A DNA stretch of 32,639 nt from Spirochaetia bacterium (lineage in GTDB: Bacteria; Spirochaetota; Spirochaetia; DSM-27196; Salinispiraceae), in contig JBBRCZ010000020.1 in the NCBI GenBank assembly GCA_038204425.1, positions 1 through 32,639 of the forward strand, given 5' to 3'. This document shows positions 6,094 through 32,639 of this stretch, one piece after another. The translations under genes were made by a program, and so were the position numbers. Positions within the stretch are counted from its first letter, which is position 1. Every line of letters begins with the position of its first letter. The notes beneath the pieces were generated by a model, which saw only the letters and a program-made list of their open reading frames with translations, was not told the origin of the DNA and made no database searches.

Positions 6094-6168
6094 CTCAACA
6101 AGAAGCGCGGATCTGATCCGCAGCTAAAAATGGTCGGCCCCAAAGGCTGTTCCAAAAAGGAGATTCTT

Positions 6169-12149: not shown

Positions 12150-12176
12150 CCCTTATACCGTAACTTGGAGTTTTTA

Positions 12177-14089: not shown

Positions 14090-14099
14090 TCAACTTTGC

Positions 14100-14128
14100 T
14101 TGACAGTCTCATATGCTTGCATAACACT
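14100..14128 (+). promoter_or_regulatory. Probable internal promoter for the Lpp20-like lipoprotein
   Basis: TTGACA-17-AACACT, followed by a ~90-nt leader and a GGGGGA SD. Confidence 0.45.
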
Positions 14129-14224
14129 ATTGAATGAGCCTGTGTTTCAGGCGGATGGAAGACTCTTGACCCGTGGGCTCAAAAAATCTTCCGAGATCTC
14201 GCTTTCCTAACTTTGGGGGAATAT

Positions 14225-14881: not shown

Positions 14882-14919
14882 TTCTAGACAATTGTTTGTA
14901 GGGATCCGCAAGGATACAA

Positions 14920-14950
14920 GCGCATCGCCACAAGCGATGCGTTTTTTTTT
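14920..14950 (+). terminator. Intrinsic terminator inside the envelope cluster
   Basis: GCGCATCGC-CACAA-GCGATGCGT followed by a T run (T9). Confidence 0.9.
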
Positions 14951-14966
14951 GTGAGGGAAGGAAACT

Positions 14967-15935
14967 ATGCGGAAAACATCCATATTTATTATCAGCTTTT
15001 TGTTATTGGTTTCGGGATTGTCAGCCCAAAGTGGCGTATTTAATAGTACTGGCAGTGCAAAGACCGAGTATGCTGCTTTGCAGGCTGCAATTCTTGGTTT
15101 GGTCAACCAAATTGAAGTTAGGGTTAAGTCTAGAACCGGTTCAGCTATTATTGTAGAAGGGCAAGACAGCCAAAGCAAATCAGATTTTGCTTCTATTTCT
15201 GACTTGCTGGTGGAATCCAACGTTGTCCTGATGGGCCTGAAGTATGATGTTCAGACACCAAGTAAAGAAGGGGGAAGCTTTGTGGTCAAGGCTCGCCTCG
15301 AGGCGGACTACAGTTTGCCTCTCTATCGCTTGCGCCTGGCTGACCTTGCGCGGCAGATAAAAGTCGGCAAAGACCTTGTCGATGCCAAGGGAAGCACCAA
15401 TAAAGAATTGTATGTTCGCGCGATGGCAAGACTTCTTGACGAGTACCAGCGCTACCGTTGGGTAGCAATTGCCTTGGGCGCTGACGACAAAGAGCTCGAG
15501 TCGGTGCCACTAAACGCCATTGAACTAGCTGCCCAACAGACATTTGCCTCTCAGACTATTGATACCATGGAAAAGGCCGCCTTGCGCCTAACGGAAGGTA
15601 TTGCGCTTTACAGTCGCAAGGCACGTGCCAAGGTTTATGTAGACTTTTCGCCAAGCCAAGGCAGCGATGTTAACCAAGCATTTGGCAATGCTCTAAGAAT
15701 GTACGTTGAATCAGTTTTGGTTAATCAAGGGGTGGCAGTGATGGAAAAGCCTGACAATGCCGTCCTGATTGTTTCGATTGACTTTGCAGCCGTGGTTTCG
15801 GCACGTGATCAGTCCTTGCAGCATCTGGAGGCTCAAGCCAGTTTGTATGAAAAGGCTGGCAGCAATGCCGGCTTGGTAAGAAAAAATAACGTCGTTAGGA
15901 TTCTGCCCCAAGCGGCAAGTTCTTACAGCTATTAA
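14967..15935 (+). CDS. Exported Lpp20-like domain protein (paralog A)
   Basis: Signal peptide ending LSA-Q; STGSAKTEYAALQAAILGLVNQIEVRVKS is an Lpp20-like start; helical middle, alpha/beta C-terminal domain. Confidence 0.6.
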   Translation: MRKTSIFIISFLLLVSGLSAQSGVFNSTGSAKTEYAALQAAILGLVNQIEVRVKSRTGSAIIVEGQDSQSKSDFASISDLLVESNVVLMGLKYDVQTPSKEGGSFVVKARLEADYSLPLYRLRLADLARQIKVGKDLVDAKGSTNKELYVRAMARLLDEYQRYRWVAIALGADDKELESVPLNAIELAAQQTFASQTIDTMEKAALRLTEGIALYSRKARAKVYVDFSPSQGSDVNQAFGNALRMYVESVLVNQGVAVMEKPDNAVLIVSIDFAAVVSARDQSLQHLEAQASLYEKAGSNAGLVRKNNVVRILPQAASSYSY

Positions 15936-15947
15936 CAGGAGAGAAGA

Positions 15948-16931
15948 ATGACAAGGAACGCGTGTGTGACATTGTTTCTTTTTGTTTTGGTCGCCAATCT
16001 GTCGGCACAGTCCGAGACAGCCCAAGGCTTTTGGACGGCACAAGGATATCACCATCAAAGAGAATCAGAGGCCCTAAAGCAAGCCACCGAAAAGCTTTTG
16101 TGGCAAATTGAACTAAGGGTTAGCAGTACTTCTGCTTTTTCGGCGATACTTGATGAGCAAGGAAACTTTATGGATTTTGACCCTTATTCGCAATCCAGAG
16201 AAGTTTTTGAAAGCCCTGTCCAGGTTCTCAACGCGACACAGTCAACTGCCCCACGGGCAACGATCAATAGCCCTTTTGCAATTACCTTAAATTATCGAGC
16301 CCCAACAAGTTTTGAAGCCTACAATCGTGGCCTAAACCAAGTGTCGGCTCTGCTCAAAGAAGCACTCAATCATCTAAAGACAGTTGTGTCCCTGGATGAA
16401 GCAGAACTAAGTCAAAAAGCCATCATCGCCTATTTAGAAGAATATCAAAAATACCGAAATATGGCTGTGTTACATGGTTTGACGGAAGACTACCTAGCCT
16501 CGGTACCTTTGCTCATAGCCGAATTGCAAGAAGACACCAAAAAGAATCAATACCTCTGCGATAGTTTAGAACGCATAAGCAGCAAGGTGATAGGCTTCCT
16601 TCGCAACGACTTTGAGCGCTCTGGTGCAAGTATCTTCATCGAAGCTGCTGTTTCACTTAAAGCAACGAAATCTACTTCTTTTTCTAACGAGCTAAAATTG
16701 GGGCTTGAGAGTGGTCTACGTCAGGCAAAGCTCAAGTTCGCTAGCTCCGCGCGCGCTGCCAGGTGGCTGCTGCGTTCTAACTACGTGGTGCTTAGAGACA
16801 ACTTAGGTAATTTGAACGGCATGGACTTGTATTTTTCGCTCGTACCCAACACAGGTCCAGAAAAGGGCATGGTCAAGCAACGCCTAATTTTTAAAGTTCT
16901 CAATCAGGTTTTTGATAAGTTTGATTACTAG
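15948..16931 (+). CDS. Exported Lpp20-like domain protein (paralog B)
   Basis: AGGAG SD; signal peptide ending LSA-Q; colinear similarity to paralog A (QIELRVSS, LEEYQKYR, LASVPL). Confidence 0.6.
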   Translation: MTRNACVTLFLFVLVANLSAQSETAQGFWTAQGYHHQRESEALKQATEKLLWQIELRVSSTSAFSAILDEQGNFMDFDPYSQSREVFESPVQVLNATQSTAPRATINSPFAITLNYRAPTSFEAYNRGLNQVSALLKEALNHLKTVVSLDEAELSQKAIIAYLEEYQKYRNMAVLHGLTEDYLASVPLLIAELQEDTKKNQYLCDSLERISSKVIGFLRNDFERSGASIFIEAAVSLKATKSTSFSNELKLGLESGLRQAKLKFASSARAARWLLRSNYVVLRDNLGNLNGMDLYFSLVPNTGPEKGMVKQRLIFKVLNQVFDKFDY

Positions 16932-18216: not shown

Positions 18217-19587
18217 ATGAAGATTGCGGTCTTATTGTCTGGCGGTGTCGATTCTTCGGTGGCCTTAAATCGTCTCAAGTCTGCGGGTTTTGACAATTTA
18301 AAGGCATTTTATCTAAAAATTTGGTTAGAAGATGACACTGCCTACATGGGTGAGTGTCCTTGGGAAGAAGATCTCAACTTCGCAAGTCAGGTCTGTAAAG
18401 CGAGTGGCGTTGCCTTAGAGATTGTGCCTTTGCAACTCGAGTATTATGATAGAGTAGTTTCCTATGCTTTGGATGAACTCAAACGGGGCCATACACCCAG
18501 CCCAGACATTTTCTGCAATCAAAGAATCAAATTTGGTGCCTTTTTTGAAACCACGGCTGCTAGCTTTGACAAGGTAGCCAGTGGTCACTACGCTCGACTA
18601 GAATGGACTGACCAGCCCCGTCCCGGTGCCAGCCATTCTGATGTCGAAGCTTGGAGCAGACTTGGTGCGTTGGAAGAAGACGCTGGTAAGGGTCCTGGTC
18701 GTTGGAAGCTCTCGCGGGCACCTGATCCGATAAAGGATCAGAGCTATTTTTTGAGCCATTTGTCCCAGCAGCAACTAGCCAAAATGGTATTTCCTATTGG
18801 TAACCTGCCCAAAACTAGCGTCAGGGGACTGGCACAAGAGTTTAAATTAGCCAACAAAGATCGACCCGATAGTCAGGGTATCTGCTTTTTGGGGAAAATT
18901 CGCTACCCTGAGTTTGTGCGACACTATTTGGGTACCAAAGACGGCCCTATCGTGGAGCTTTCTAGCGGATTAGTGCTGGGGCGTCACGATGGATTTTGGT
19001 TCTTTACGGTTGGTCAGCGAACAGGTCTAAAACTTGGCAACGGTCCATGGTATGTTGCGGCCAAAGATGCCATGCGCAATATTGTCTATGCAGCCCATGC
19101 CAACCAAGAAAAGGAACTGAGCCGAACTCAGCTCGAGATCGCCCAGGTCTCTTGGTTGTCTGACCAGCCACCCAGCGATCAGGAGCTACAGTTGTGGAAT
19201 GCTCAAATTCATGACGAACAAGGCACCAGCGGATTATTTGTAAAATTACGTCATGGTCCTCAGCTCATAGCCTGCACTTTAGAGTCATTGGGACAGGAAG
19301 TTGCATCCACCGTAGACAAAAAGTCTGATGAGACAAGTTTAGGCCATCTCAAAATTAATTTGGCAACGGCAGACCGCGGCATAGCCCCAGGGCAATTTGC
19401 AGTGCTCTACTTGGGAGAGGAATGTTTGGGCGGTGGCAAGATTCAGGCTCATGGCCTGGCCGACCTTGAAGTACTCCATCAGCGATTTGTATCTGAGCAG
19501 TTGCGCCAAGAAAATGAAGCGGCGGCGTTATTGGCAAACAAAAAGTCATTGCGACGACTAGCTCGTTCTAAGCGTGCGTCTTTGTGA
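18217..19587 (+). CDS. mnmA: tRNA 2-thiouridine(34) synthase
   Basis: Motifs SGGVDS, TPSPDIFCNQRIKFG, SGHYAR, KDQSYFL, DSQGICFLG, TVGQR and IAPGQ. Confidence 0.97.
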   Translation: MKIAVLLSGGVDSSVALNRLKSAGFDNLKAFYLKIWLEDDTAYMGECPWEEDLNFASQVCKASGVALEIVPLQLEYYDRVVSYALDELKRGHTPSPDIFCNQRIKFGAFFETTAASFDKVASGHYARLEWTDQPRPGASHSDVEAWSRLGALEEDAGKGPGRWKLSRAPDPIKDQSYFLSHLSQQQLAKMVFPIGNLPKTSVRGLAQEFKLANKDRPDSQGICFLGKIRYPEFVRHYLGTKDGPIVELSSGLVLGRHDGFWFFTVGQRTGLKLGNGPWYVAAKDAMRNIVYAAHANQEKELSRTQLEIAQVSWLSDQPPSDQELQLWNAQIHDEQGTSGLFVKLRHGPQLIACTLESLGQEVASTVDKKSDETSLGHLKINLATADRGIAPGQFAVLYLGEECLGGGKIQAHGLADLEVLHQRFVSEQLRQENEAAALLANKKSLRRLARSKRASL

Positions 19588-20717
19588 AGAAAACTCAAGA
19601 GACTTGGTACAAAAAGATTCAAAGTGGGCCTATCACTAGTAGTCCGCTGGAGTTGCGCCGCGCAAGTCAGGCGTTGATTCCACAGGGCCGAGCTATGCGT
19701 AAGCGTGTTGGTGGTCTGATTTCAATTGCACCAATGATAGACAAAACCAATCGCCATTTTAGACGATTTCTGCGTCTTATGACGCGCAGTACGGTTCTCT
19801 ACACTGAGATGATCACCGCTTTGGCCATCATCCACGGCAAACGAAAGCCACTGCTTGATTTTTCACCAATAGAACATCCACTTATCTTGCAGCTTGGTGG
19901 GGACAATCCAGAGCACCTAAAGCAGGCAATCAGCATTGCCGAAGACTGGGGATACGATGAGTACAACCTCAATGTAGGGTGCCCCTCCGAAAAAGTGCAA
20001 AGAGGCAGTTTTGGCGCCTGTTTGATGGCCGACCCCAGTCATGTCGCCGAGCTTATGGACGCTATGGCTCAAGTAACCAAAAAGCCAGTAAGCATCAAAC
20101 ACAGAGTTGGCATTACAGGCTTTGGCTACGAACGTCAAAGCTATGAGGAACTTGCGGAATTTGTGAGCTGTGTTGCAGCCGCCGGAAGTGAACGATTTGT
20201 AGTGCACGCGCGCATTGCAATGTTAGAAGGGCTCAACCCGCGCGAAAACAGAACTATTCCGCCATTGCGCTATCAAGATGTCTACCAACTCAAGCAACAG
20301 TTTCCAGACCTGCATATAGAAATTAACGGTCAGATTAAGGACGTGGCTAGTATTCGTCAACATCTCAAAGCTGGTATGGATGGCGTCATGATTGGTCGAG
20401 CAAGCTATGAGAACCCATCGCTAATGGCCTATCTCGACGCATTTGAACGTGATTGGCAAGGTGGCGGGTCTCGCAATCCCGAATGGCCACTTCCAAGCTT
20501 TGATCGCAGCGACTTGGTCTTAAAATATGCTGACTATCTTGATCAAGAGTCGGGCACTGGTCTAAGTCCACGCGCCCATATTTGGCCAATTTTAGAGCTC
20601 TTTAATGGTATCCCCGGTAGTCGCAAATATCGCCAGATTCTAAGTCAGGCTTATCGTCCGCCCGTCTCAGTACTTGGCTTAGCAAAAAGCGCTTTAGAGG
20701 CGCTCTCGATTGACTAG
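19584..20717 (+). CDS. dusA: tRNA-dihydrouridine synthase A
   Basis: Motifs APMIDKTNRHFR, LYTEM, QLGG, NLNVGCPS..V..GSFGACLM and the DusA-typical VHAR.A.L.GLNPRENRTIPPLRY. Start uncertain (GTGA overlap used). Confidence 0.92.
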   Translation: MKKTQETWYKKIQSGPITSSPLELRRASQALIPQGRAMRKRVGGLISIAPMIDKTNRHFRRFLRLMTRSTVLYTEMITALAIIHGKRKPLLDFSPIEHPLILQLGGDNPEHLKQAISIAEDWGYDEYNLNVGCPSEKVQRGSFGACLMADPSHVAELMDAMAQVTKKPVSIKHRVGITGFGYERQSYEELAEFVSCVAAAGSERFVVHARIAMLEGLNPRENRTIPPLRYQDVYQLKQQFPDLHIEINGQIKDVASIRQHLKAGMDGVMIGRASYENPSLMAYLDAFERDWQGGGSRNPEWPLPSFDRSDLVLKYADYLDQESGTGLSPRAHIWPILELFNGIPGSRKYRQILSQAYRPPVSVLGLAKSALEALSID

Positions 20718-21622: not shown

Positions 21623-23572
21623 ATGGATCGACGCAAACCACTAGGTCTTTACCTCATACGAATATTCTTCCTCGGCATTTTTCCAGCGCTCCTTATCTTT
21701 TGCACTGTAGCAAGCGTAATTGGCTATGGGATCATCAACCATCAGATTTCTGACAAGTCTCGCTTGCTCACTAAAGTGCTAACACAATCTTTTGAGTCAT
21801 TTCAAAGTAACACTTCGCGTGCTTTAGGCTTTATTGGCAACAACTTGCAACAAGACAATAGTCTGGCACGAGGTTTGTATAACCCAATCAATCTTCTACT
21901 GCAAACCGCCCTGTCGTCGTACGAGTATTTTAATGCCATCTTGGTTTTGGACAAAAAAGGCACCGTACTAGTAAGCGTGCACAGCGATTTTGACTTGCCT
22001 GGCATCGACTATTCTCTGCAATCATTTTCAAACGCCGAGAAGGATAAATTTAATTGGTCACTTTTATCCAAGTCTCCCGAAACCAAAAAGAACAGTCTGG
22101 CCTTGTCTGTGCAGGTTGGAGAATACGTTCTTGTTGCAATTTTAGACTTGACACCTTTAGAGAAAATCTTTGACGCAACACTTGATCCAGGCAGCGAGAT
22201 GCTTATTTTGACCGACAAGACTGGTCTTGTTATTGCTCGAAATCATTCAAAAAAAGCATCCGCAAACGCAGTAGATAGAGACCACTTTGCGTGGATGCCT
22301 AAGCAAGTAGACCAAGAGTTTTTTGAGACTCAACGTGTCAGCAATAGCGAAGGTTTACTAGAAGTACAGACATTTTCCTTGGGTGTTTCTAAGGTGCTGA
22401 TGCACCTGGTAAGGGATCAGAACGTTCTCTTTCAAGGCCTACGTACTTACTTGGCGGCGATTGGTTTGGTGTTTTTGATCTTGGTTGTCATTGTTTCTGG
22501 ATTGGTATTTCCTCTCTTTAGACTGATGTCAGATCAACTAAAAGACATTGTCCTAGCGATTACCTCAATCTCCGACGGTCGACAGGGCAAGATTGCGTTA
22601 GCAGGTGAGATAGAAGAATTTTACCAACTTGGCGCGCAGGTTAACCGCATGCTTGCAACCTTACATTCGAGAGAAGGCAGAATCTTGGAACTCAACCTCT
22701 CATTAGAAAGCAAAGTAAGAGCGCGAACTGGTGAACTAGAAGACAAAAACAAAGAACTTTCGGAGGCATTGATCAATCTCAAATCTACCCAAGATCAATT
22801 ATTGTTGTCGGAAAAAATGGCTACAGTTGGTCAGTTGGTGGCTGGAGTGGCCCATGAAATAAGCACGCCAGTTGGTGTTGGTCTTACGGCTGCTACTTAT
22901 TTGGAAAGCAAGGTGCAGACAGTAAACAAAGCATTTGTGGCTGGTGCTCTAAGCAAAAAGGACTTTGAGGCTTTTATACAAACGGTAAAGGAGTCTAGCC
23001 ATATTGTTGCGCGAAATCTAGAAAGAGCTTCTGATCTGATTGGCAGCTTTAAGCAAGTTGCGGTAGACCACTCGACCGATGATTTGCGCACGTTTGATGT
23101 TAAGGCGTATTGTGAAGAAGTGGTTCGTAATATCAGACCAGCCCTCAAGCATCGACCAATAGAAGTGCAAGTTCTAATAGAAGATGGTATTAGGATTATG
23201 TCGTTTCCCGGCGGATTTTCACATATACTCACTAACTTAATAATGAACTCACTTATCCATGGCTATGATCCCCAACAAGCAGGGATCATAAAAATTTCCG
23301 CCAGCATGGATGATGACTATTTCACTTTAATCTACTGCGATGACGGAAAAGGCATCACACCAGCGATAAAAGACAAGGTTTTTGAACCATTTTTTACCAC
23401 GCGAAGAAATGAAGGCAGCTCGGGACTAGGTATGCATATTGTCCACAACATAGTTAGCAATCAACTAAAGGGAAGTTTGGACTTACAAAGTGCTCTCGAT
23501 CACGGCATGACCGTCACCATTACCATTCCTGCCCATGAATGTCGCGTGTCATCTAACAGGGAAAAGTTATGA
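21623..23572 (+). CDS. Membrane sensor histidine kinase (Cache-like periplasmic domain, HAMP, HisKA, HATPase)
   Basis: H box VAHEISTP, N box NLIMNSLIHG, DDGKGI, FEPFFTT and GSSGLGM; two TM segments. Confidence 0.95.
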   Translation: MDRRKPLGLYLIRIFFLGIFPALLIFCTVASVIGYGIINHQISDKSRLLTKVLTQSFESFQSNTSRALGFIGNNLQQDNSLARGLYNPINLLLQTALSSYEYFNAILVLDKKGTVLVSVHSDFDLPGIDYSLQSFSNAEKDKFNWSLLSKSPETKKNSLALSVQVGEYVLVAILDLTPLEKIFDATLDPGSEMLILTDKTGLVIARNHSKKASANAVDRDHFAWMPKQVDQEFFETQRVSNSEGLLEVQTFSLGVSKVLMHLVRDQNVLFQGLRTYLAAIGLVFLILVVIVSGLVFPLFRLMSDQLKDIVLAITSISDGRQGKIALAGEIEEFYQLGAQVNRMLATLHSREGRILELNLSLESKVRARTGELEDKNKELSEALINLKSTQDQLLLSEKMATVGQLVAGVAHEISTPVGVGLTAATYLESKVQTVNKAFVAGALSKKDFEAFIQTVKESSHIVARNLERASDLIGSFKQVAVDHSTDDLRTFDVKAYCEEVVRNIRPALKHRPIEVQVLIEDGIRIMSFPGGFSHILTNLIMNSLIHGYDPQQAGIIKISASMDDDYFTLIYCDDGKGITPAIKDKVFEPFFTTRRNEGSSGLGMHIVHNIVSNQLKGSLDLQSALDHGMTVTITIPAHECRVSSNREKL

Positions 23573-23587
23573 ATTTTCTGCAAAAGG

Positions 23588-23616
23588 TGGATAGGGATAA
23601 GTCAAAGAACTATAAT
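23588..23616 (+). promoter_or_regulatory. Probable promoter of the EAL-cNMP gene pair
   Basis: TGGATA-17-TATAAT, about 60 nt upstream of ATG 23678. Confidence 0.5.
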
Positions 23617-23677
23617 TTGTATAGGCTGTTGCAAACGGCTCCGGAAGGATGCAATTTTTTGGCAAAAGGGTTGAGTC

Positions 23678-25888
23678 ATGAGTGATGCACCGCTGGTTTT
23701 TTTTGACGACTCACGCGTAGAACCCAAACAGGGCGAACAAAGTCCATGGAAGATTATGGTAGTTGATGACGACCATGATGTTCACAGCGTCACAGAGTTT
23801 GTAATGCACGGCGTAACCATTCTCGACCGTTCCTTGAGTTTTTGTCATGCCTACTCCGCCGCCGAAGCGCGAGAACTTTTGGCCCACGAACAGGATATTG
23901 CTGTCATTTTGCTGGACGTAGTAATGGAAAGCGAAAATGCCGGACTTACCTTGGTCAAGCAAATTAGAGAAGAACTTGGTTTGCTTTCTACAAGAATTAT
24001 TCTGCGCACAGGGCAGCCTGGGTACGCCCCTGAGTACGAAGCCATCCGCGACTACGACATCAACGACTATCGAACCAAGTCCGAGCTCAGTTATGCTCGT
24101 TTGTTAACTTCTCTCACTGCCGCGATTCGCTCTTATGTTCAAATCAAAGATATTGCCGAGAATAGTCGCGGCTTGGAGTACATCATCCAGTCTGCTCCCC
24201 GTCTTTTGACTTTAACCAGTGAAGAATCATACGCCAGCGCCTTGATAGAACAAATCGGCGGCATCATCAATCAAAAATTTGATGCTTTTGTTGCCAAAAT
24301 AGACCCCCATACTAGCGGTAGCTATGAGTTCTTGGCCAGCTGTGGCAAGTACAAAAATATAAAGACTCTGAGTAATGACTCGTTGCTTCCCCATTCGGAC
24401 CTACAAAGTCTCGAAGCGAGTCTAAAGTCATCAATACAGAAACAAGACAGTCTGTTTGGCTATCAGTCTGCTTGCTTGTATATTTCTGGTGGCGATGACC
24501 AAATTTTGTGTTTTTACATCGAACTTGCTAGCCAGCTTGTTGATCAAAAACGTCGTATGCTGTCAGTTTTTAGTGTTGCAGCAATTATGGGCTACCAAAA
24601 CATGTACCTCATGCACCGCTTGCGACTTTTGGCCTATGTTGACCAAGCGACGGGCCTCTACAACCGAACTGGTTTTATTAATGCAATAGATGAACTTGAA
24701 ACCAAAAGTCGCCAAGGTTTGTCAGTGGTGCTGATAGATATCGAAGGGTTCTCAGAAATAAACGAAGCACTTGGACATGATTTTGGGGATGATCTGCTTC
24801 TGGCGGTCGCAAGAAGGCTAAGTTCGGTCTTTGAACATAACATGGTGGTTGGTCGGGTCAGCGCTGACGGCTTTGCGCTTTTGGGTCAAGAAATTTCTTT
24901 GGAGCCAGAGCGGATTAGTGACATTTTTGCCCAGCCTTTTGCCGTTCAAAAAAACAGCATGTATCTAAGAGTGGTCTTTGGTCTGGTTCGCCTCGGCCAA
25001 GTCCAAGGTGATGGCGCTGACATTGTTAAAGACGCCTTTATTGCGGTAAAGATCGCTAAGTTTCAACAACAGCCGCGCTACTGTTATTATTTGCCACAGC
25101 TGGAAGTTGAAACCAGAAAAAAGCTGGCTATGCTTGACGCACTCAGGCATAGCTTAATTGATAACCGTTTGGAGCTCTACTACCAACCTCAAGTCGATAC
25201 AAGAGATGGGGCTTTAACCGGAATGGAAGCGCTGATGCGCTGGAAGACTGATGATGGTGTTTTTATTCCGCCATCAACCTTTATTCCCTTGGCCGAACAA
25301 AGTGGTCTGATTGTGGACATGGGCAATTGGGTGCTTAACGAATCGTGCCGCAATGCTCGTCGTTGGCTTGATGAAGGTCTAAAGCCAGGTCGGATTGCTG
25401 TTAACGTCTCGGTTAGACAGTTTCTCAATCCAGCCTTCCTTGATATCTTTGCTGATATACTTAAACGTCACCAATTGGACGAGTCCAACTTTGAGTTAGA
25501 AATTACCGAAAGCATGGCCATGCACGATGTTGAAGACGTATTGCGCATCCTAACCGATATGAAGAGCCGTGGTTATTTTATTGCTATAGATGATTTTGGA
25601 ACCGGATTTTCTTCTCTTAGTTACTTGCAACAGTTACCCATTGATAGACTTAAGATTGACCGCTCGTTTGTAATGGCGATTCACGAGACCGAACGTGACC
25701 GAGCAATCGCTGGCCTGATTGTTGGACTTGGCAAAAGTCTCGGGCTGTCGGTAATCGCTGAGGGCGTGGAACATATCCAGCAGTCAGAGATCTTAGCGGC
25801 ACTTGGCTGTTATGAGGCCCAAGGTTATTATTATGGAAAACCTATGGATTCAAAGGCAATGTTTGAACTCTTGAAGTCAAAAGTTTAG
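23678..25888 (+). CDS. Response regulator c-di-GMP phosphodiesterase: REC-DUF3369-like-degenerate GGDEF-EAL
   Basis: REC: VDDD, LLDVVM, RTGQPG. GGDEF motif replaced by SADGF. EAL domain intact: EALMRW, AVNVS, ELEITE, DDFGTG, KIDRSF, EGVE, QGYY. Confidence 0.93.
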   Translation: MSDAPLVFFDDSRVEPKQGEQSPWKIMVVDDDHDVHSVTEFVMHGVTILDRSLSFCHAYSAAEARELLAHEQDIAVILLDVVMESENAGLTLVKQIREELGLLSTRIILRTGQPGYAPEYEAIRDYDINDYRTKSELSYARLLTSLTAAIRSYVQIKDIAENSRGLEYIIQSAPRLLTLTSEESYASALIEQIGGIINQKFDAFVAKIDPHTSGSYEFLASCGKYKNIKTLSNDSLLPHSDLQSLEASLKSSIQKQDSLFGYQSACLYISGGDDQILCFYIELASQLVDQKRRMLSVFSVAAIMGYQNMYLMHRLRLLAYVDQATGLYNRTGFINAIDELETKSRQGLSVVLIDIEGFSEINEALGHDFGDDLLLAVARRLSSVFEHNMVVGRVSADGFALLGQEISLEPERISDIFAQPFAVQKNSMYLRVVFGLVRLGQVQGDGADIVKDAFIAVKIAKFQQQPRYCYYLPQLEVETRKKLAMLDALRHSLIDNRLELYYQPQVDTRDGALTGMEALMRWKTDDGVFIPPSTFIPLAEQSGLIVDMGNWVLNESCRNARRWLDEGLKPGRIAVNVSVRQFLNPAFLDIFADILKRHQLDESNFELEITESMAMHDVEDVLRILTDMKSRGYFIAIDDFGTGFSSLSYLQQLPIDRLKIDRSFVMAIHETERDRAIAGLIVGLGKSLGLSVIAEGVEHIQQSEILAALGCYEAQGYYYGKPMDSKAMFELLKSKV

Positions 25889-25897
25889 GAAAGCAGT

Positions 25898-26473
25898 ATG
25901 AAAATTGTAAACGAAAACCATGAGCTTGTGGCCAAAAATCTTAGTACAAGTTTGCTTGGCAAACACTTGGATCTCGATGAAATACGAATTTTGGTCGATG
26001 AGGCCGAACTAATCGAATATGAGGCTGGCGAAGCAATAGTTTTAGAAAAGCATGCCTCTAGTGATATGTTTATAGTTGTACGAAATACCGTCGTAATTGA
26101 AGTGGGCGAGGGCCCTGAGGCGGTCTACGTTTGCACCTTGGGCGAAGGCGAGGTATTTGGTGAGGCCGGCCTGTTTGTAAATGTTAAACGGACTGCTACG
26201 GTTCGATCCAGTGAAGCCGCTTTGCTATTGCGTATGAAGCGCCTGTCGTTCTTTAATTTGCTCAAAAGTGACTCAAAACTCGGTATCAAGCTTTTATTTA
26301 TAATTATGTATGGTCTTTTATATAAACTTCGTCTCAGCAATCAAGACTTAGCTCTCGAACGACGCCATGAGCCGCATCAGTCGGACATCGATCGCATGAT
26401 TGACGAGCTCATCCCCGATGATACAACCAAACTCTTTGCCGACCTCAAAAGCCAACGAACAGTCCCTCAATAG
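25898..26473 (+). CDS. Stand-alone cyclic-nucleotide-binding domain protein
   Basis: Phosphate-binding cassette GEVFGEAGLFVNVKRTATV; no recognisable CRP-type HTH. Confidence 0.88.
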   Translation: MKIVNENHELVAKNLSTSLLGKHLDLDEIRILVDEAELIEYEAGEAIVLEKHASSDMFIVVRNTVVIEVGEGPEAVYVCTLGEGEVFGEAGLFVNVKRTATVRSSEAALLLRMKRLSFFNLLKSDSKLGIKLLFIIMYGLLYKLRLSNQDLALERRHEPHQSDIDRMIDELIPDDTTKLFADLKSQRTVPQ

Positions 26474-26507: not shown

Positions 26508-27503
26508 ATGAGTGATAATCGTTGGCCTAACTTTTGGCAGAGTCTGCCGCGCCCCTTTGTGGCACTTGCTCCGATGGAGAATGTCAGTGACTTTGTTTTT
26601 AGACAATTGATTGCTGGCTTTGGCGCGCCGGATGTTTTTTTTAGTGAGTTTGTAAGCGCACGAGCCTTGGTTTCTGGCAGGCAGGATGCTTGGATGAGCC
26701 TGTGTAATCCTGGTGACCATCCCTTGGTTGCGCAAATCTGGGGCACCGATCCCAAGCTTATTTACGAGGCTGTTAAGCTCTTGTTAGACTACGACTTTGC
26801 TGGCGTTGACCTCAATATGGGCTGCCCACAGCCTAAAATCACCCGCAAAGGAGCCTGTGGCGGTCTAATCAAAAACCCTAACTTGGCCTATGAGCTAGTG
26901 CGTGCTGCCCAAGAAGCTGCCAAAACATTGCCGGTTAGCGTTAAAACTCGCATTGGTTGGAAGCAGAGTGAGATTGAAACTTGGATTGCTGGACTGCTAG
27001 AGCTCAAACCTGCTGCGCTTACTGTCCATGGACGTACCGTCGATCAAATGTCAGATGGCCTGGCCGATTGGACCGCAATCGCCGAAGCTGTGGCACTCAA
27101 AAACCAGATTAGTCCACACACCATCGTGATTGGCAACGGCGATCTTGAAATCCCGCAAGAAGTGGATTCTCGTTTTGAGCAGACGGGAGTTGACGGCCTC
27201 ATGGTGGCACGCGGCATATTTAAGGATCCTTTTATCTTTAGACGCTGGAAAGAAATAAAGAATAAAGCGCCATTGAGCCCAGCCTTTGCTGACCTAGCAC
27301 TAAAGCAAAGAGTTGAGCTTGCTCGCTACCATCTCGACTTGTTTGAAGAGTTTCGTGGGGACGGACCTCACTTTGAGATCATGAAGAAGTTCTTTAAAGT
27401 TTATCTCTCTGGTACCGCCGAGCGCGAGGCAGTTAGAGAGCGGCTTAACCTTACCCATAGCTGGGACCAAGCACGTGCCATTTTGATTGAGCACAGCAGT
27501 TAA
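26508..27503 (+). CDS. tRNA-dihydrouridine synthase (DusB/DusC-like)
   Basis: Motifs LAPMENVSD, QIWG, DLNMGCP, VKTRIG, VHGRT, GNGD and GLMVARG. Confidence 0.92.
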   Translation: MSDNRWPNFWQSLPRPFVALAPMENVSDFVFRQLIAGFGAPDVFFSEFVSARALVSGRQDAWMSLCNPGDHPLVAQIWGTDPKLIYEAVKLLLDYDFAGVDLNMGCPQPKITRKGACGGLIKNPNLAYELVRAAQEAAKTLPVSVKTRIGWKQSEIETWIAGLLELKPAALTVHGRTVDQMSDGLADWTAIAEAVALKNQISPHTIVIGNGDLEIPQEVDSRFEQTGVDGLMVARGIFKDPFIFRRWKEIKNKAPLSPAFADLALKQRVELARYHLDLFEEFRGDGPHFEIMKKFFKVYLSGTAEREAVRERLNLTHSWDQARAILIEHSS

Positions 27504-27532: not shown

Positions 27533-27561
27533 TTGTCACGAGCATTATACTTGCATATACT
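27533..27561 (+). promoter_or_regulatory. sigma70 promoter of the lipid operon
   Basis: TTGTCA-17-TATACT; GGAG SD at 27598. Confidence 0.7.
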
Positions 27562-27610
27562 ACCAGCCTTCCACAAAGGAACAGATTGCTAGGTATTGGA
27601 GTAGAGCTTG

Positions 27611-28744
27611 ATGAGGGAACTTGAAATCAGAGAAGTGACTAAGCGCCGCGACAAAAGACGCTTTGTTAACTATCCCTTTGCATTGTATAAGCGCCCAGCT
27701 CTGTCCCCATCGTTATGGACTCCGCCCTTGTTGATTGAAGAATACCGGACGCTTGATAGCCAAAGAAACAAGTGGTTCTTGCAAGGCGAACAGAGCGAGT
27801 TTATTGCTGTGCGCAAGGGGCGTTTGGTGGGACGAATCGCGGCTCATGTCGACCACGGTTACGTTAATTATCAGAGTGATAGGACAGGCTTTTTTGGCTT
27901 CTTTGAATGTGACGACGACCACGAGGCTGCCAAACAACTTTTTGCGGCCGCCGAATCGCGACTGCTTGATTATGGTGTACTGGCCGCTATGGGGCCTATC
28001 AATCAAAGTCCCAACCAAGTAATGGGTTGTCTGGTTGACGGTTTTGAAAACACAGCTCCGATCTTTATGGGTTGGAACCCCGGCTACTACGACACGCTAA
28101 TTCAAGCAAATGGTTATACGAAAGAAAAGGATCTTCTTTCGTATCGCATGGATACAAGCGCGCCACTTCCGCAGCAGATACTGCGAATTGCAACTTTGTG
28201 TAAGGAACGCGAGCAGATAAGTATCCGCAGATTAAACCTGCGCGAGTTTGACGATTTACTAGAGTCAATAAGGAATATTTACAATGAGGCTTGGGCTGAC
28301 AAATGGGGTTTTGTACCATGGACAAGGGAGCAGTTTGTTCAACTTGGCAACGATCTCAAACCGTTTATCCACCTGCAAATGTTGATTGTAGCTGAGCATG
28401 CTGGTCGGCCGGTTGGTTTTGCACTTGCCATACCTGACCACAGTCAGCTTATGCAAAAAATAGACGGTCGACTTTTGCCTTGGGGTTTTGTTCATTTACT
28501 TAAAAACTTCCGCAATACCTCAATTTTTAGAGTGGCGGCCTTTGGTATAAAACCAGCATGGCGGGCTAGGGGTGTTGACGCCCTGTTTGTCTATGAATTA
28601 TACACTCACGGTATAGAATTGGGATGTAAACTGGCAGAGTTTTCTTGGATTGCTGAAGATAACTATCCTTTACGCAACATGCTCGCTAAGTGGGGCGCTC
28701 AAGCTTCTATGACCCATCGTATCTATCGCAAGGAGTTAACATGA
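27611..28744 (+). CDS. YghO/bacterial ceramide synthase (bCerS)-like GNAT N-acyltransferase
   Basis: Family pattern WTPPL..E...LD...N, VGRIAA, GFFGFFE.DD, GP...SPN...G.LVDGF, M.WNP.YY, YNEAW..KWGFVP, G.KP.WR.RG and E.SWI.EDN. Confidence 0.75.
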   Translation: MRELEIREVTKRRDKRRFVNYPFALYKRPALSPSLWTPPLLIEEYRTLDSQRNKWFLQGEQSEFIAVRKGRLVGRIAAHVDHGYVNYQSDRTGFFGFFECDDDHEAAKQLFAAAESRLLDYGVLAAMGPINQSPNQVMGCLVDGFENTAPIFMGWNPGYYDTLIQANGYTKEKDLLSYRMDTSAPLPQQILRIATLCKEREQISIRRLNLREFDDLLESIRNIYNEAWADKWGFVPWTREQFVQLGNDLKPFIHLQMLIVAEHAGRPVGFALAIPDHSQLMQKIDGRLLPWGFVHLLKNFRNTSIFRVAAFGIKPAWRARGVDALFVYELYTHGIELGCKLAEFSWIAEDNYPLRNMLAKWGAQASMTHRIYRKELT

Positions 28745-29670
28745 AGACCGTATTTCTCTTCCCTGGACAAGGAGCCCAGTATCCAGGTATGGCCAAGGAT
28801 CTCTACGAGCAAAGCCAAGCAGTCAAAGATTTGTTTGAGCAAGCCTCACAGGCTGCAGGCATAAGTATGACCAAGCTGCTTTTTGAAGGCAGCGAAGATG
28901 ATCTAAAGGCCACACACAATACACAAATCGCCATAACGTTGGCTAATCTCTCGGCCTCTGCCGTTTTGTCCGAACAAGGTCGCAGTGCTGAGCTCTGCGC
29001 TGGATTTTCGGTTGGTGAGTACGCAGCCTTGGCAGAGTCGGGAGTTTTGAGCGCCGAGGACGCCTTTAAGGCTGTCTTAATTAGAGGCGAAGTCATGGAG
29101 GCGGCCAGCCGTACTTGTGACAGCCAGCAGGGACCCTCCGGTATGTCCGCCATCTTAGGGATGAGCTATGAAGAGGCCGCGCCAATTGTGCAAGCCTTGT
29201 CTGCCGAAGGGGTGTTTATTGCCAATCATTCATCCCCAAGTCAGATAGTAATTGCAGGAACAGCCAGGGGGCTTGAGATTGCCGAGTCAAAACTCAACGA
29301 CGCGGGAGCTATGAAGGTAGTGCGCCTTAAGGTATCGGGGCCGTTCCATTCGCCGTTACTCGAGCAAGCCAAAAAAGATTTTGCAGCCCGAGCCGCTGCA
29401 CTCACTTGGAAAAATCCTACAAAACCGATAGTATCAAACGTAAGCGCTGCGTTTATTAGCTCGGGCGAACAAGCTCGAGACTTTGCCGCACAGCAAATTG
29501 TATCTACCGTTAAATGGGTTGACAGTATGCGTCTCTTGACTCAATCAGGTGCCTCGTTGGTACTTGAGGTGGGACCGGGTAGAGTGCTTGGAGGCTTGTG
29601 GAAGTCGTTTACCAAAGAAATAAGGTGTCAGAGTGCCGGCACGCTGGAGCAGATACAAGCAATTCAATAA
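28741..29670 (+). CDS. fabD: Malonyl-CoA:ACP transacylase
   Basis: Motifs FPGQGAQ, GFSVGE (catalytic Ser), IRG (malonate-binding Arg) and SGPFHS; ATGA overlap with the GNAT gene. Confidence 0.92.
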   Translation: MKTVFLFPGQGAQYPGMAKDLYEQSQAVKDLFEQASQAAGISMTKLLFEGSEDDLKATHNTQIAITLANLSASAVLSEQGRSAELCAGFSVGEYAALAESGVLSAEDAFKAVLIRGEVMEAASRTCDSQQGPSGMSAILGMSYEEAAPIVQALSAEGVFIANHSSPSQIVIAGTARGLEIAESKLNDAGAMKVVRLKVSGPFHSPLLEQAKKDFAARAAALTWKNPTKPIVSNVSAAFISSGEQARDFAAQQIVSTVKWVDSMRLLTQSGASLVLEVGPGRVLGGLWKSFTKEIRCQSAGTLEQIQAIQ

Positions 29671-29713
29671 GCCGCTTACAGAGACCGTTTCTATAATTTT
29701 CCAAGGAGTAAGA

Positions 29714-31027
29714 ATGGAACATCGCATTGTAATTACCGGTATGGACACCATAAATCCGTGTGGAGACACTTTGGATGGCTACTACCAAAACTTGATCCAA
29801 GGTAAGTCCGGTGTAAAAAGATGGACTTCACTTGATATGTCCCGTGTAGAAAACAAGGTGGGCGGTGACCTAGGAGACTATGACTGGCCCGCGGCCTTAG
29901 AGCGTGTAAAGCATCTTTTTGGCGACCGCTACAAAGCTATAAGAAAGCTTTTTAAGAACGCCACTTTTACCAGCCGATTGTCGATGCTTACCGCCATCAA
30001 CGCATGGAACGACGCGGGTCTGTTTGCCGAAGGTGCGCGCGACGGTGAAGATCCTTATCGCACTATGTCTATCGTTGCCGGACACAACCTCAATAGCAAC
30101 TACATCAGCACACAATACGAACAGTTTAAGATTGAACCTGAGTACATGGATCCGCTTTCTTCGGTGGAGGCGATCGACAACAATGTTCCGGCTTTGATCA
30201 CCGAAGTCTTGGGCTTGCACGGTCCAGCGTATACCCTTGGTGCTGCTTGTGCCTCTGGTAACCTTGCTTTGCGAGATGCTTGCCGCGACATACGCGCTGG
30301 AGAAATAGACCGGGCCGTAGTCTGCGGAGCCGTTTTTGATGTGGCGGCTTCCGATATTCAGGCCTCGGCAATACTTAACTCCGTGGTAGTAAAACCCGAG
30401 CTCCAAGTTGACCCAACCCAAGCGAGCCGACCTTTTGATCACAAGCGCAATGGTTTTGTTTACAGCCACGGTTCTGCTACCTTGATTGTAGAAAGTCTAG
30501 AAAGTGCTCTCAAACGTGGGGTCAGAATTTACGCTGAAGTAGCTGGCATTAAGGCCAGTTCCAACGGTGTGCATTTGCCAATGCCAGCGGCTGAGCACCA
30601 AGCTTATGCAATGCGTGAAGCAATCAAACAAGCTGGTCTTGTGCCCGAACAAGTCCAGTATGCAAACTGTCATGCCACCGGAACCCCTGCCGGAGACTTA
30701 GAAGAACTAGATGCAATGCGCTTGGTTTTTGGCAAGCACGTGTACAACATGAAGTTTAATGCTCCCAAATCCATGTTGGGACACACTTGTTGGGCAAGTC
30801 CTTTGGTAGAAACCGTGGGTGGTATATTGCAGATGATGCACGGTAGACTGCACCCAACTATCAATATAGAAAAGCTCGATCCTCATGTGGATGTCGATGT
30901 TTGTGCCAATGTTGCGGTGGACTTTAAGGCCGAGATCATGCTCAAAAACAGCTTTGGTTTTGGCGGTCTCAATTGCTGTTCGGTAATTCGCTTGTGGAAA
31001 CCCGAAATGGCTACCAGCAAGGTTTAG
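29714..31027 (+). CDS. Stand-alone beta-ketoacyl-ACP synthase (FabF/PksF-like)
   Basis: AAGGAG SD; GAACASG (Cys), HATGTPAGD and KSMLGH (His-His), SRPFD, NSFGFGG. Confidence 0.92.
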   Translation: MEHRIVITGMDTINPCGDTLDGYYQNLIQGKSGVKRWTSLDMSRVENKVGGDLGDYDWPAALERVKHLFGDRYKAIRKLFKNATFTSRLSMLTAINAWNDAGLFAEGARDGEDPYRTMSIVAGHNLNSNYISTQYEQFKIEPEYMDPLSSVEAIDNNVPALITEVLGLHGPAYTLGAACASGNLALRDACRDIRAGEIDRAVVCGAVFDVAASDIQASAILNSVVVKPELQVDPTQASRPFDHKRNGFVYSHGSATLIVESLESALKRGVRIYAEVAGIKASSNGVHLPMPAAEHQAYAMREAIKQAGLVPEQVQYANCHATGTPAGDLEELDAMRLVFGKHVYNMKFNAPKSMLGHTCWASPLVETVGGILQMMHGRLHPTINIEKLDPHVDVDVCANVAVDFKAEIMLKNSFGFGGLNCCSVIRLWKPEMATSKV

Positions 31028-31056
31028 TTGCTATTGGCAACGGAGAAGGATCAAAT

Positions 31057-31797
31057 ATGAATGCATTTGTAACCGGCGGATCTAGAGGGATAGGGCGGGC
31101 TATTGTTCTGCGCTTTGTTAAAGAAGGCTGGGGCGTTGCTTTTACTTATTCGAGCAATCAAGCTGCTGCAGATGAGACGATTGCTCAGGCTAAGATAGTT
31201 AACCCACAGGCTAAGGTTAAGGCCTATCAATTAGAACTGAGCGATGCTGGCAAAATTGAAACCGTAATAGATGATGCCATCAAAGACTTTGGAGACATAA
31301 CCGCTGCCGTTAACAATGCGGCAGTCTTGCGCAACAATGCAGCAGCTTTAATGTCCAATGACGAATGGGAAGACGTTATCAGAGTTAACCTGTCGGGGCC
31401 GTTTTATGTCTCACGTTCCTTTATTATGCATTTTTTGAGTCAACGCAAAGGTCGCTTGGTGCATATTTCCAGCATATCGGCTGGTGGCAGCTCTGGCCAG
31501 ATCAACTACGCGGCCTCCAAGGCTGGCTTAGAAGGCATGAGCCGTACCATAAGCAAAGAGTACGGTAAGAAGGGAATCACTTCCAATATCGTAACCGTTG
31601 GATATGTACCGACTGATATGACCAATGACCATATGGTCGACTCACTTAAAGAATACTGGCTTAAACACTGCCCGGCTCGTAGAGTAGGCACACCCGAAGA
31701 AATTGCGGCAACTGTTTACTTTCTCTGTTCTGACGAAGCCGCATTTATCAGCGGCGAAAACATCCAACTTGGCGCAGGACTTACCTACGCACCCTAA
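31057..31797 (+). CDS. fabG: 3-oxoacyl-ACP reductase (FabG-like SDR)
   Basis: Motifs TGGSRGIG, VNNAA, ISS and GQINYAASK. Confidence 0.85.
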   Translation: MNAFVTGGSRGIGRAIVLRFVKEGWGVAFTYSSNQAAADETIAQAKIVNPQAKVKAYQLELSDAGKIETVIDDAIKDFGDITAAVNNAAVLRNNAAALMSNDEWEDVIRVNLSGPFYVSRSFIMHFLSQRKGRLVHISSISAGGSSGQINYAASKAGLEGMSRTISKEYGKKGITSNIVTVGYVPTDMTNDHMVDSLKEYWLKHCPARRVGTPEEIAATVYFLCSDEAAFISGENIQLGAGLTYAP

Positions 31798-31806
31798 GGA
31801 GCAATC

Positions 31807-32639
31807 ATGAATCGCGTTGGCATCGAAAAAATGAACATCTATGGTACTTCTATGTACCTTTCTCAAAAAGACTTGGCTGTAGCTCGAGGTCTGGATCCTG
31901 ATACCGTAGTAGCAGACTACTTAATCGACACACGTTCGCTCAACCCGGTCTGGGAAGACACGGTCACCATGGGCGCAAATGCCGCTATTACTATGTTGAG
32001 TGAAGAAGACAAGGCCTCAATCGGTCTTTTGGTGGTAGGAACAGAAGGGTCTGTTGACCATGGAAAGCCAATTTCTACCAATATTCACAAAGCACTCGGT
32101 CTCGGGCCCAATGTGCGTAACTACGAAACCAAGTTTGCTTGTTATTCTGGCGGAGCTGCGCTTGATGCGGCTATCAATTACGTAGGAAGTGGCTTTAACC
32201 ATGGCAAAAAGGCTTTGGTAATTTGCGCGGACTTTTCGCGCATGCACCTTGGTGCCAAACATGAGTTTGTTATGGGTGGTGTTTCGGCGGCCTATCTTAT
32301 CAGTGACAATCCAAAAATTGTCGAGTTTGAAGCAAATAAAAAGGGCACTTGGACTACCGACATCTATGATACCTTTAGACCAACAGCTCGGGTAGAAATG
32401 GGAAATAACGAAGTTAGCTTGTTTTCGTACATGGACGCTGTCCAAGGTGCCTATGAGGACTATCTGCGCAATAATCCTGACAAAGACATCGATTTTGACA
32501 AGTATTTTAAGTACATCATTTATCACACGCCATTCGCTGGTATCACCTTTCAGGCCCACCGCACCTTGACGCGCAACTTTGCGCCCAAGAAGAAGCCCGA
32601 ATTGCAAGACGACTTTGACAAACGAGTTTTTCCAGCCCT
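31807..32639 (+). CDS. HMG-CoA/HMG-ACP synthase of the PksG (polyketide beta-branching) type; 3'-truncated, not in ORF track
   Basis: AAGGAG SD, ATG 31807, frame open to the window end: MNRVGIEKMNIYG...WEDTVTMGANAA...GTEGSVDHGKPISTNIHKALGL...ETKFACYSG...DTFRP...SLFSY...YHTPF..AHR. Glu-Cys-His triad intact. Confidence 0.88.
   Translation, partial: MNRVGIEKMNIYGTSMYLSQKDLAVARGLDPDTVVADYLIDTRSLNPVWEDTVTMGANAAITMLSEEDKASIGLLVVGTEGSVDHGKPISTNIHKALGLGPNVRNYETKFACYSGGAALDAAINYVGSGFNHGKKALVICADFSRMHLGAKHEFVMGGVSAAYLISDNPKIVEFEANKKGTWTTDIYDTFRPTARVEMGNNEVSLFSYMDAVQGAYEDYLRNNPDKDIDFDKYFKYIIYHTPFAGITFQAHRTLTRNFAPKKKPELQDDFDKRVFPA

Follow-up and report, generated by a model that had tools for sequence, protein, structure and literature searches.

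A beta-branching gene set joined to an alpha-oxoamine synthase and a bCerS-family acyltransferase in a Spirochaetia bacterium: a candidate pathway to methyl-branched ceramide-like lipids

We analysed a window of 32,639 nucleotides (nt) comprising all of contig C20 from a Spirochaetia bacterium (genome of 2.84 Mb, 95.6% complete). At its 3′ end begins an operon of eleven genes encoding, in order, a GNAT N-acyltransferase, a FabD-type acyltransferase (AT), a ketosynthase (KS), a ketoreductase (KR), an HMG-ACP synthase (HMGS), two enoyl-CoA hydratase-like proteins (ECH1 and ECH2), an enoyl reductase (ER), an acyl carrier protein (ACP), an alpha-oxoamine synthase (AOS) and a FabZ dehydratase (DH). 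We think it probable that this operon produces a methyl-branched, ceramide-like membrane lipid, through an AcpK-like ACP, condensation by the AOS and N-acylation by the GNAT. C, L and G labels designate the contigs, fetched loci and genomes of this analysis, G000 being the source genome.

The operon extends beyond the contig end

The genes for GNAT, AT, KS, KR and HMGS in the window are all open reading frames (ORFs) on the forward strand, as described in the first-pass annotation of this DNA, and the ATGA overlap reported there between GNAT and fabD is present, the GNAT TGA and the AT ATG sharing positions 28741-28744. An alternative TTG start of the GNAT lies at 27608. The promoter, which had been called clear, is a sigma-70-like site (three such sites occur in 500 bp for 0.4 expected); it matches the consensus by pattern only and is kept here as a predicted promoter. 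All coordinates are given in Table 1.

The HMGS gene runs off the contig. C17, once reverse-complemented, starts with the same 141 nt that end C20, and a contig-end comparison within the assembly gave no second candidate for the 32,639 end of C20. In three public runs, contigs also continue past the window end, the search not showing where these lead. No RNA data set was listed as containing the stretch, which has no bearing on its expression. Given the contigs of the three runs, together with ten loci in which all eleven genes are contiguous (see below), the C20-C17 join has good support, short of a direct bridge. C17 holds the HMGS C-terminus, ECH1, ECH2, the ER (a reductase of the short-chain dehydrogenase/reductase (SDR) type), ACP, AOS and FabZ; FabF and phosphopantetheinyl transferase (PPTase) genes come next. 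The operon therefore goes on beyond the window, as proposed. The window itself lacks Spt (serine palmitoyltransferase), ACP and ECH genes, as had been remarked, and the recommended downstream inspection located an Spt-like AOS, the ACP and both ECHs just past its end, along with the dehydratase and enoyl reductase.

Table 1. Coordinates of the operon and adjoining features
Feature	Sequence	Position	Strand	Remarks
Sigma-70-like site TTGTCA-17-TATACT	window	27533..27561	+	consensus match 10/12; between dus gene and GNAT
YghO/bCerS-family tandem GNAT N-acyltransferase (predicted)	window	27611..28744	+	377 amino acids (aa); Acetyltransf_1 27.4 bits, above Pfam gathering score
FabD malonyl-CoA:ACP transacylase (AT)	window	28741..29670	+	GFSVG and HS motifs
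Stand-alone KS	window	29714..31027	+	C179/H320/H357 intact
FabG-like 3-ketoacyl-ACP reductase SDR (KR)	window	31057..31797	+	YxxxK motif
PksG/CurD-like HMG-ACP synthase	window	31807..32639	+	first 277 of 410 aa; rest on C17
Assembly overlap with C17	window	32499..32639	+	141 nt
ECH1	L001	18618-19460	-	PksH-like PRK07112, 131.5 bits, below cut-off
ECH2	L001	17873-18625	-	PksI family PRK07110, 251.7 against cut-off 215
ER, enoyl reductase-like SDR	L001	17021-17851	-	best family FabL
AcpK/CurB-like ACP	L001	16722-16970	-	82 aa; best family PRK07117
AOS, alpha-oxoamine synthase	L001	15347-16642	-	431 aa
FabZ-like dehydratase	L001	14714-15250	-	
FabF	L001	13349-14605		opposite strand to operon genes
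PPTase	L001	12461-13279		beyond FabF

HMGS, ECH1, ECH2 and ACP best match the PksG, PksH, PksI and AcpK families, respectively. The beta-branching set known from polyketide synthases (PKSs), composed of donor ACP, HMGS, ECH1 and ECH2, is complete in the operon, and gene content bears out the proposal that the system is discrete and type II-like and includes a beta-branching cassette. The best PDB matches of HMGS are PksG and then CurD, with Myxococcus MvaS-type entries ranked just under them (5HWQ, which we take to be a Myxococcus protein); that of the ACP is the donor ACP CurB. In an unrooted tree with no mevalonate outgroup, the cassette HMGS separates from the PksG set. The AT scores 259.2 on TIGR00128 (fabD, cut-off 260.9) and is the sole PF00698 match and sole FabD found in the genome. 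Since FabH, FabG/FabF, FabZ, FabV and three other ACPs (one of them AcpP-like) are encoded elsewhere, the operon KR, DH, ER and ACP are a set parallel to the other fatty-acid genes.

With such likenesses to PksG, PksH, PksI and AcpK, the genes might form a beta-branching cassette for a modular trans-AT PKS encoded elsewhere, or an ordinary mevalonate operon; both appear extremely improbable. A complete mevalonate operon lies apart from the lipid operon, on contig C7 (L117:3303-10157), with HMGS, FMN-dependent IDI-like, HMG-CoA reductase, decarboxylase and fused kinase genes. The mevalonate assignment was rejected on the location of this reductase and these kinases and on the PksG/CurD matches of the operon HMGS. 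No modular PKS KS was found in the nearly complete G000, where the six KS matches all fall inside open frames of 390-467 aa, and no KS-bearing ORF above 900 aa was found in the loci scanned. The downstream genes thus show neither the modular PKS nor the mevalonate operon that the annotation had named as grounds for refutation.

The gene set recurs in several phyla

We compared a sample of 61 loci (52 scan loci and 11 fetched regions, two duplicates removed; loci L076-L103, with ordinary FabF, are left out of the counts). The eleven genes are contiguous, in the same order and on the same strand, in 10 of them. Taken individually, KR is found in 57, HMGS in 53, ECH1 in 49, ECH2 in 46, FabZ in 45, ACP in 43, AT in 42, ER in 41, AOS in 37 and GNAT in 23. 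Among the 33 well-covered loci, with at least 6 kb on either side of the KS, the corresponding numbers are KR 31, HMGS 30, FabZ 30, ER 29, ACP 29, AOS 25 (within 10 kb, in several phyla) and GNAT 14. The supposed conservation of the GNAT-fab linkage holds insofar as it recurs, in full order in the ten loci; the GNAT is nevertheless the loosest part, being adjacent in 14/33.

The KS type occurs in at least 52 loci from Spirochaetota, Myxococcota, Bacteroidota, Acidobacteriota, Verrucomicrobiota, Pseudomonadota, Nitrospinota, Bdellovibrionota and candidate phyla; its nearest named relatives, among the matches listed, are spirochaetes. All seven same-family genomes (among 41 relatives) carry it. 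Within 301 Spirochaetota genomes, the KS was detected in 27, at an identity of at least 53% in 17, and these are the same 17 that carry the AOS at 66% identity or more. A GNAT match is present in 17/17 of these KS- and AOS-bearing genomes compared to 106/301 Spirochaetota overall, kin not being independent; GNAT homologues far outnumber the genomes with a cassette AOS. Cultured bacteria are included: the KS of Salinispira pacifica is 66% identical and Nannocystis records carry the cassette. A profile search of protein representatives returned mostly multi-module PKSs, with four single-domain rows.

Several loci differ in architecture. In L040 (14917-16953), an AcpK-like ACP is fused in frame to an AOS; the locus also has another AOS, another ACP and a pair of ERs. 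ECH1 and ECH2 domains share one open frame in L037 (10855-12747), and L050 (9492-19510, Chthoniobacter) carries two KS paralogues with a PlsC-like acyltransferase after the second. Two ER paralogues are present in 19/61 loci, just one of which also has FabF. Neighbours in other loci include CerR-like epimerases, PAP2, fatty-acid hydroxylase, desaturase and glycosyltransferase genes, and an extra SDR by the AOS. These tailoring neighbours fit a sphingolipid-type product.

A KS search of plasmids gave one decayed cassette and otherwise FabF. The cassette is on the mobilizable Serratia fonticola plasmid pSF001 (L134, 1-15985), adjoining a transposase and with broken KS and ECH1 genes, and points to horizontal spread. 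In a genome of a different order-level group (G250:C119:21898-29598), KS and AOS are 76% and 81% identical, closer than those of same-family relatives, which reflects either transfer or misbinning.

The KS belongs to a Cys-retaining clade close to KS0

The active-site Cys is kept in 58/58 cassette KSs, in contrast to the Ser found in 21/21 KS0s (a sample made of homologues of one myxobacterial protein). In a 46-row tree of cassette KSs, KS0s, FabF and modular KSs (ordinary-FabF loci L076-L103 thinned, FabB not included), cassette KSs (100/100) pair with Ser-type KS0s (100/100) as sister clades (99/96), to the exclusion of FabF and modular KSs. A tree joining the cassette KS to FabF was only marginally rejected (p-AU 0.046). 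The KS reaches 299 bits against a cut-off of 445 for PRK07103. As judged by its sequence, it belongs to a clade that retains the Cys and is sister to PksF-type KS0, and it is not a Ser-type KS0.

The predicted KS structure (pLDDT 91.5) has the FabF fold. Residues H124, N125 and W360 sit at the positions of Escherichia coli FabF G107, I108 and G343. At the first two, cassette KSs have H (57/58) and N (58/58) and KS0s have S and N (N in 21/21), while W at G343 is present in 58/58 cassette KSs; both groups lack E191 and mostly have D in place of A193. Substitutions of FabF I108 shorten the products. The residues of the cassette KSs suggest an acyl pocket that is short or has been remodelled, with a decarboxylase-like character, whereas the invariant Cys suggests a real condensation. 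A KS making both acetyl-ACP and acetoacetyl-ACP would explain the presence of a single ACP. The FabFs accompanying the spirochaete cassette group in a separate clade (100); 13/15 carry D or A at the I108 position.

The AOS is Spt-like without being a canonical Spt

The best solved relative of the AOS is Sphingobacterium Spt (273 bits), ahead of Kbl (225) and CFAT (209). The His, Asp and Lys of the pyridoxal phosphate site align, and the His, DEAH, GTLSKS and Arg motifs match 3A2B. In a 75-row FastTree with SH-like support (L044, L145 and L167, broken or near-copies, omitted; thinned: 14/19 ALAS, 7/13 Kbl), the cassette AOS clade comprises 33 rows (98), apart from a 22-row Spt clade (99). It takes in one long-branch-adjacent Bacteroidota/Myxococcota group, and three further cassette-adjacent AOSs group apart from it. 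Relatives of the AOS at 37-46% identity are found in 10 other Spirochaetota genomes which have no KS. Of the Spt sought downstream, therefore, what was found is an AOS with Spt-like fold residues; it is not a canonical Spt, so that serine is only a candidate substrate.

Almost throughout the clade, the GSR loop of Spt is replaced by GAP, GSP or SSP, S81-R82 of Spt being A-P in this AOS and S-P in most non-spirochaete members. In Spt, S81 and F83 are at the substrate and acyl sites, and S81 touches the substrate carboxylate via water and not by its side chain (PMC10196870; papers are cited here and below for the passages concerned). The loop change could reshape the entrance without determining which amino acid is used. 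The position of CFAT Lys280 corresponds to Cys298 in the AOS, as deduced by position from the Spt alignment and PMC13692747, and the CFAT lysine thus seems to be absent. In a study of anoxic water, where many odd-chain ceramides and 1-deoxyceramides are unassigned, AOSs outside the Spt-like clade were treated as probably unrelated (PMC11334938).

The separate clade with its G[AS]P or SSP loop, the short-looking KS pocket and a weak match to CAI-1 synthase (112 bits) among the AOS PDB matches could indicate that the product is a small diffusible signal or secondary metabolite (an alpha-aminoketone or amino alcohol) derived from a short branched acyl-ACP. CqsA-type AOS enzymes make alpha-aminoketone-type signals. 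We nevertheless regard such a product as distinctly improbable: the presence of dedicated KR, FabZ, ER and frequently FabF implies that elongation is repeated, the neighbours that recur are genes for tailoring membrane lipids, and the substrates of bCerS are long-chain bases (PMC11087976).

The GNAT groups with YghO and bCerS

The GNAT can be aligned from end to end with E. coli YghO (29% over 383 aa, E 5e-53), the matched YghO lying in an spt-acp-epimerase-FAAL cluster; yghO was named the orthologue of the Caulobacter N-acyltransferase in PMC9386255. Matches in the plasmid collection cover at least 80% of the query in 44/46 places. In a 40-row FastTree, in which deep support is just 80-89 and the Caulobacter enzyme is not represented, the spirochaete GNAT clade (100) stands among homologues located beside canonical Spt genes. 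The predicted structure is a tandem GNAT fold; a fold search gave generic tandem GNATs only, and a sequence search of the PDB nothing significant. Full-length homology and tree position together uphold the earlier assignment to the bCerS/YghO family, and N-acylation of a long-chain base is predicted, bCerS having been found to acylate a 3-keto base (PMC11087976). A second YghO/bCerS-like GNAT of G000 (L118:1624-2796, contig C11), 29% identical to that of the operon, has no identified lipid genes nearby.

In the first-pass annotation, the branched chain was the acyl group that the GNAT transfers to an amine, a sphingoid base or other acceptor; here this reading is taken as transfer from the ACP to an amine or to an unbranched long-chain base. 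The GNAT indeed comes first in the operon, with translational coupling to FabD, and on the tree cassette-linked GNATs require 4 label changes, which suggests that they were recruited repeatedly. Their monophyly is however not rejected (p-AU 0.050, two long-branch GNATs omitted), and the AOS is linked more tightly than the GNAT (25 against 14 of 33) and is fused once to the ACP. This fusion is the strongest hint that the operon ACP hands its chain to the AOS; on that basis the branched chain more likely reaches the AOS first, forming a long-chain base. Use of the branched chain as N-acyl group alone seems to us distinctly improbable, although it is compatible with the ceramide-like product, in which both chains could be branched.

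A proposed route to a branched ceramide-like lipid and its alternatives

From gene content and order, catalytic motifs, family placement and conservation, we infer the following steps. FabD would load malonyl onto the single AcpK-like ACP, activated by the neighbouring PPTase. The Cys-retaining KS would decarboxylate malonyl-ACP to acetyl-ACP, the HMGS donor, and would also condense to give the beta-ketoacyl-ACP acceptor, one ACP type serving in both roles. At each cycle, the beta-keto group would be either reduced by KR, FabZ and ER, or methyl-branched through HMGS, dehydration by ECH1, decarboxylation by ECH2 and reduction by ER. Branching at the first cycle would lead to isovaleryl-ACP, and at later cycles to internal methyls. 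The chain would be extended by the neighbouring FabF in spirochaetes and by the KS itself elsewhere. The AOS would then join the branched acyl-ACP to a small amino acid (Ser, Ala or Gly), generating a 3-keto long-chain base to be N-acylated by the bCerS-type GNAT into a (possibly oxidised) ceramide-like lipid. In relatives, CerR-like, hydroxylase, desaturase or PAP2 tailoring may be added.

Iso-only and internal or multiple branching have about even odds. In a bolder version, an iterative dissociated synthase alternating reduction and beta-methylation would produce an isoprenoid-like, multiply branched ceramide-like lipid (with, for example, 3,7,11-methyl spacing), starting from malonyl-ACP and using no prenyl chemistry, and would also represent a living ancestor-type of the KS0/donor-ACP/HMGS/ECH cassettes. 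The two ERs in 19/61 loci, the single ER and dedicated FabF clade of spirochaetes, the PKS-type C-methyltransferase of a sister variant (below) and the sister relationship of the Cys clade and KS0 favour this version, which we still hold to be unlikely.

A number of observations weigh against a ceramide-like product. On the side of the end enzymes, the AOS falls outside the canonical Spt clade and under all NCBIfam Spt cut-offs (331, 273 and 235 bits against 640, 500 and 670, respectively; the CFB Spt cut-off is strict, being passed by 0/26 Bacteroidota genomes). The GNAT is not adjacent in 19/33 well-covered loci, its query remained unmatched in 2/5 non-spirochaete cassette genomes, and 89 of the 106 GNAT-bearing Spirochaetota genomes have no cassette. 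CerR was also sought: epimerase matches in G000 reach 23-34% only, with no clear orthologue, though a clear homologue is found beside the cassette in L015 (37-40% identity to epimerases adjoining canonical Spt genes). As for the chain, the acyl pocket, which looks closed and KS0-like, speaks against long-chain elongation by the KS.

The composition of a sister version of the gene set points in the same direction. Ten Spirochaetota genomes have a KS of 45% identity and neither cassette AOS nor GNAT; cassette-type HMGS and ACP are present in 5/5 of those checked, and a C-methyltransferase gene adjoins the KS in 5/5 KS regions fetched from this group, the one compared with the PDB matching the CurJ C-methyltransferase (E 8e-38). 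A PlsC-like neighbour lies beside the ACP in two such loci, L227 and L229. As these genomes keep HMGS and ACP beside a C-methyltransferase and a PlsC-like gene, the core is best described as a branched-acyl-ACP factory with exchangeable end modules, which can serve another end. The sister cluster (L234:6994-14124, L232, L235, L236, L227, L229; genomes G260, G305, G226, G312, G212) has the order KS-C-methyltransferase-KR-HMGS-ECH1-ECH2-ACP and suggests alpha- plus beta-methylated acyl chains for glycerolipids. A second KS copy, usually more divergent, is found in four of the ten genomes and in G333.

This brings in the possibility that the core supplies branched fatty acids for ordinary glycerolipids, as an ACP-based counterpart of the myxobacterial Aib route (isovaleryl-ACP, then iso fatty acids), and that AOS and GNAT are co-located lipid genes using ordinary chains. 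The presence of the genome's only FabD in the operon, the sister version with its PlsC-like genes, the AOS-clade relatives in 10 genomes without KS and the apparently short KS pocket agree with it. So do the fatty acids of S. pacifica, which include 11.7% iso-C15:0 and 2.1% iso-C13:0 (PMC4511686). Against it stand the AOS within 10 kb in 25/33 well-covered loci across phyla, the co-occurrence of KS and AOS in the same 17/301 genomes and the ACP-AOS fusion; moreover, the cassette was found in a Bacteroidota genome with a fused E1 2-oxoacid dehydrogenase candidate. We therefore judge the glycerolipid explanation rather unlikely. S. pacifica also has an unidentified major aminolipid (PMC4511686), and its lipids and KS are compatible with the ceramide-like pathway without being proof of it. 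Anteiso and iso-even acids reported in the same bacterium (PMC4511686) fit ordinary branched-chain keto-acid primers, and the tested genomes hold candidate 2-oxoacid dehydrogenases (E1 candidates of unassignable type); both again count against the pathway.

Comparison with known systems

The HMGS cassettes of modular PKSs (AcpK/PksF/PksG/PksH/PksI, CurB/CurC/CurD, BonN/BonF-I) share with the operon a donor-type ACP, HMGS, ECH1 and ECH2. Usually, donor ACP, KS0, HMGS and ECH act on an acceptor ACP of the modular PKS (PMC12560621, PMC9582728). In contrast, the operon has neither modular PKS nor separate acceptor ACP, its KS is sister to KS0 and yet keeps the Cys, and it brings its own AT, KR, DH and ER together with an AOS and GNAT end.

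The Spt-bCerS-CerR pathway with AcpR/AasR (Caulobacter, E. coli B) resembles it by a specialised-ACP-fed AOS, a YghO/bCerS N-acyltransferase and, beside some cassette loci, CerR-like epimerases; Spt was shown to prefer the specialised ACP (PMC9386255). There, the ACP is loaded by an acyl-ACP synthetase, whereas the operon would build the acyl chain de novo on its ACP, has an AOS outside the Spt clade and no clear CerR, and includes the branching cassette. For the SgaAB sphinganines of Pseudomonas fluorescens MYb115, a dedicated synthase likewise feeds a clustered AOS, but SgaA is an iterative type I PKS and the operon enzymes are all discrete; beta-branching goes unmentioned in the relevant passages of that paper, and ‘bCerS’ is absent from its main text (PMC12134224).

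The isovaleryl-CoA (Aib) route of Myxococcus similarly obtains a methyl-branched unit from acetate by HMG synthesis, dehydration, decarboxylation and reduction, on CoA and reportedly with the AibA/AibB decarboxylase, whereas the operon is ACP-based and has ECH2. Finally, the CFAT/SulA sulfonolipid pathway has in common a non-Spt AOS clade, long-chain bases and, in the spirochaete subgroup, Gly-Ala at Spt G80-S81; it differs by the residue at Lys280 and by the lower CFAT score of the AOS given above.

PKS-fed sphingoid synthesis (SgaAB, type I), beta-branching cassettes and bCerS are thus already known. What appears to be new is a free-standing system with a Cys-retaining sister of KS0, a single donor-type ACP and an AOS/bCerS end. 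Literature searches aimed at this combination in open PMC and bioRxiv (subscription journals not covered) listed no description of it, as the first-pass annotation had supposed. Beta-branching has been described as an accessory of modular PKSs, and the assembly of bacterial ceramides as starting from pre-formed fatty acids. If the proposed pathway is true, beta-branching would extend to a free-standing route to membrane lipids present in many phyla, the AOS and the Cys-retaining KS would each define a new clade, and there would be a lead to the origin of KS0 cassettes. Unassigned aminolipids of anoxic habitats would gain a candidate source, and the discrete enzymes, few in number, could serve to place methyl branches on acyl chains. 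Its cultured carriers, with the S. pacifica KS and the Nannocystis cassette, make the system directly testable.

Other features of the window and genome

Three dihydrouridine synthase genes flank the operon within about 25 kb (window 19584-20717 and 26508-27503; L001:9341-10495). Further upstream in the window (21623-26473) are consecutive genes for a Cache-domain histidine kinase, a DUF3369-GGDEF-EAL protein and a cNMP-binding protein; a second GGDEF-EAL gene comes after the PPTase on L001. Six co-oriented ORFs at 10206-16931 (647, 462, 208, 222, 322 and 327 aa) have no Pfam match, nor do the stretches 2-2250 and 6130-6825. Elsewhere in G000, an aryl-polyene-like type II cluster on contig C9 (L120, C9:34000-50000, and C9:54199-54642) encodes two KSs, a KR, an ApeP dehydratase, a DUF3261 protein, a thioesterase, an aromatic amino acid lyase and two ACPs.

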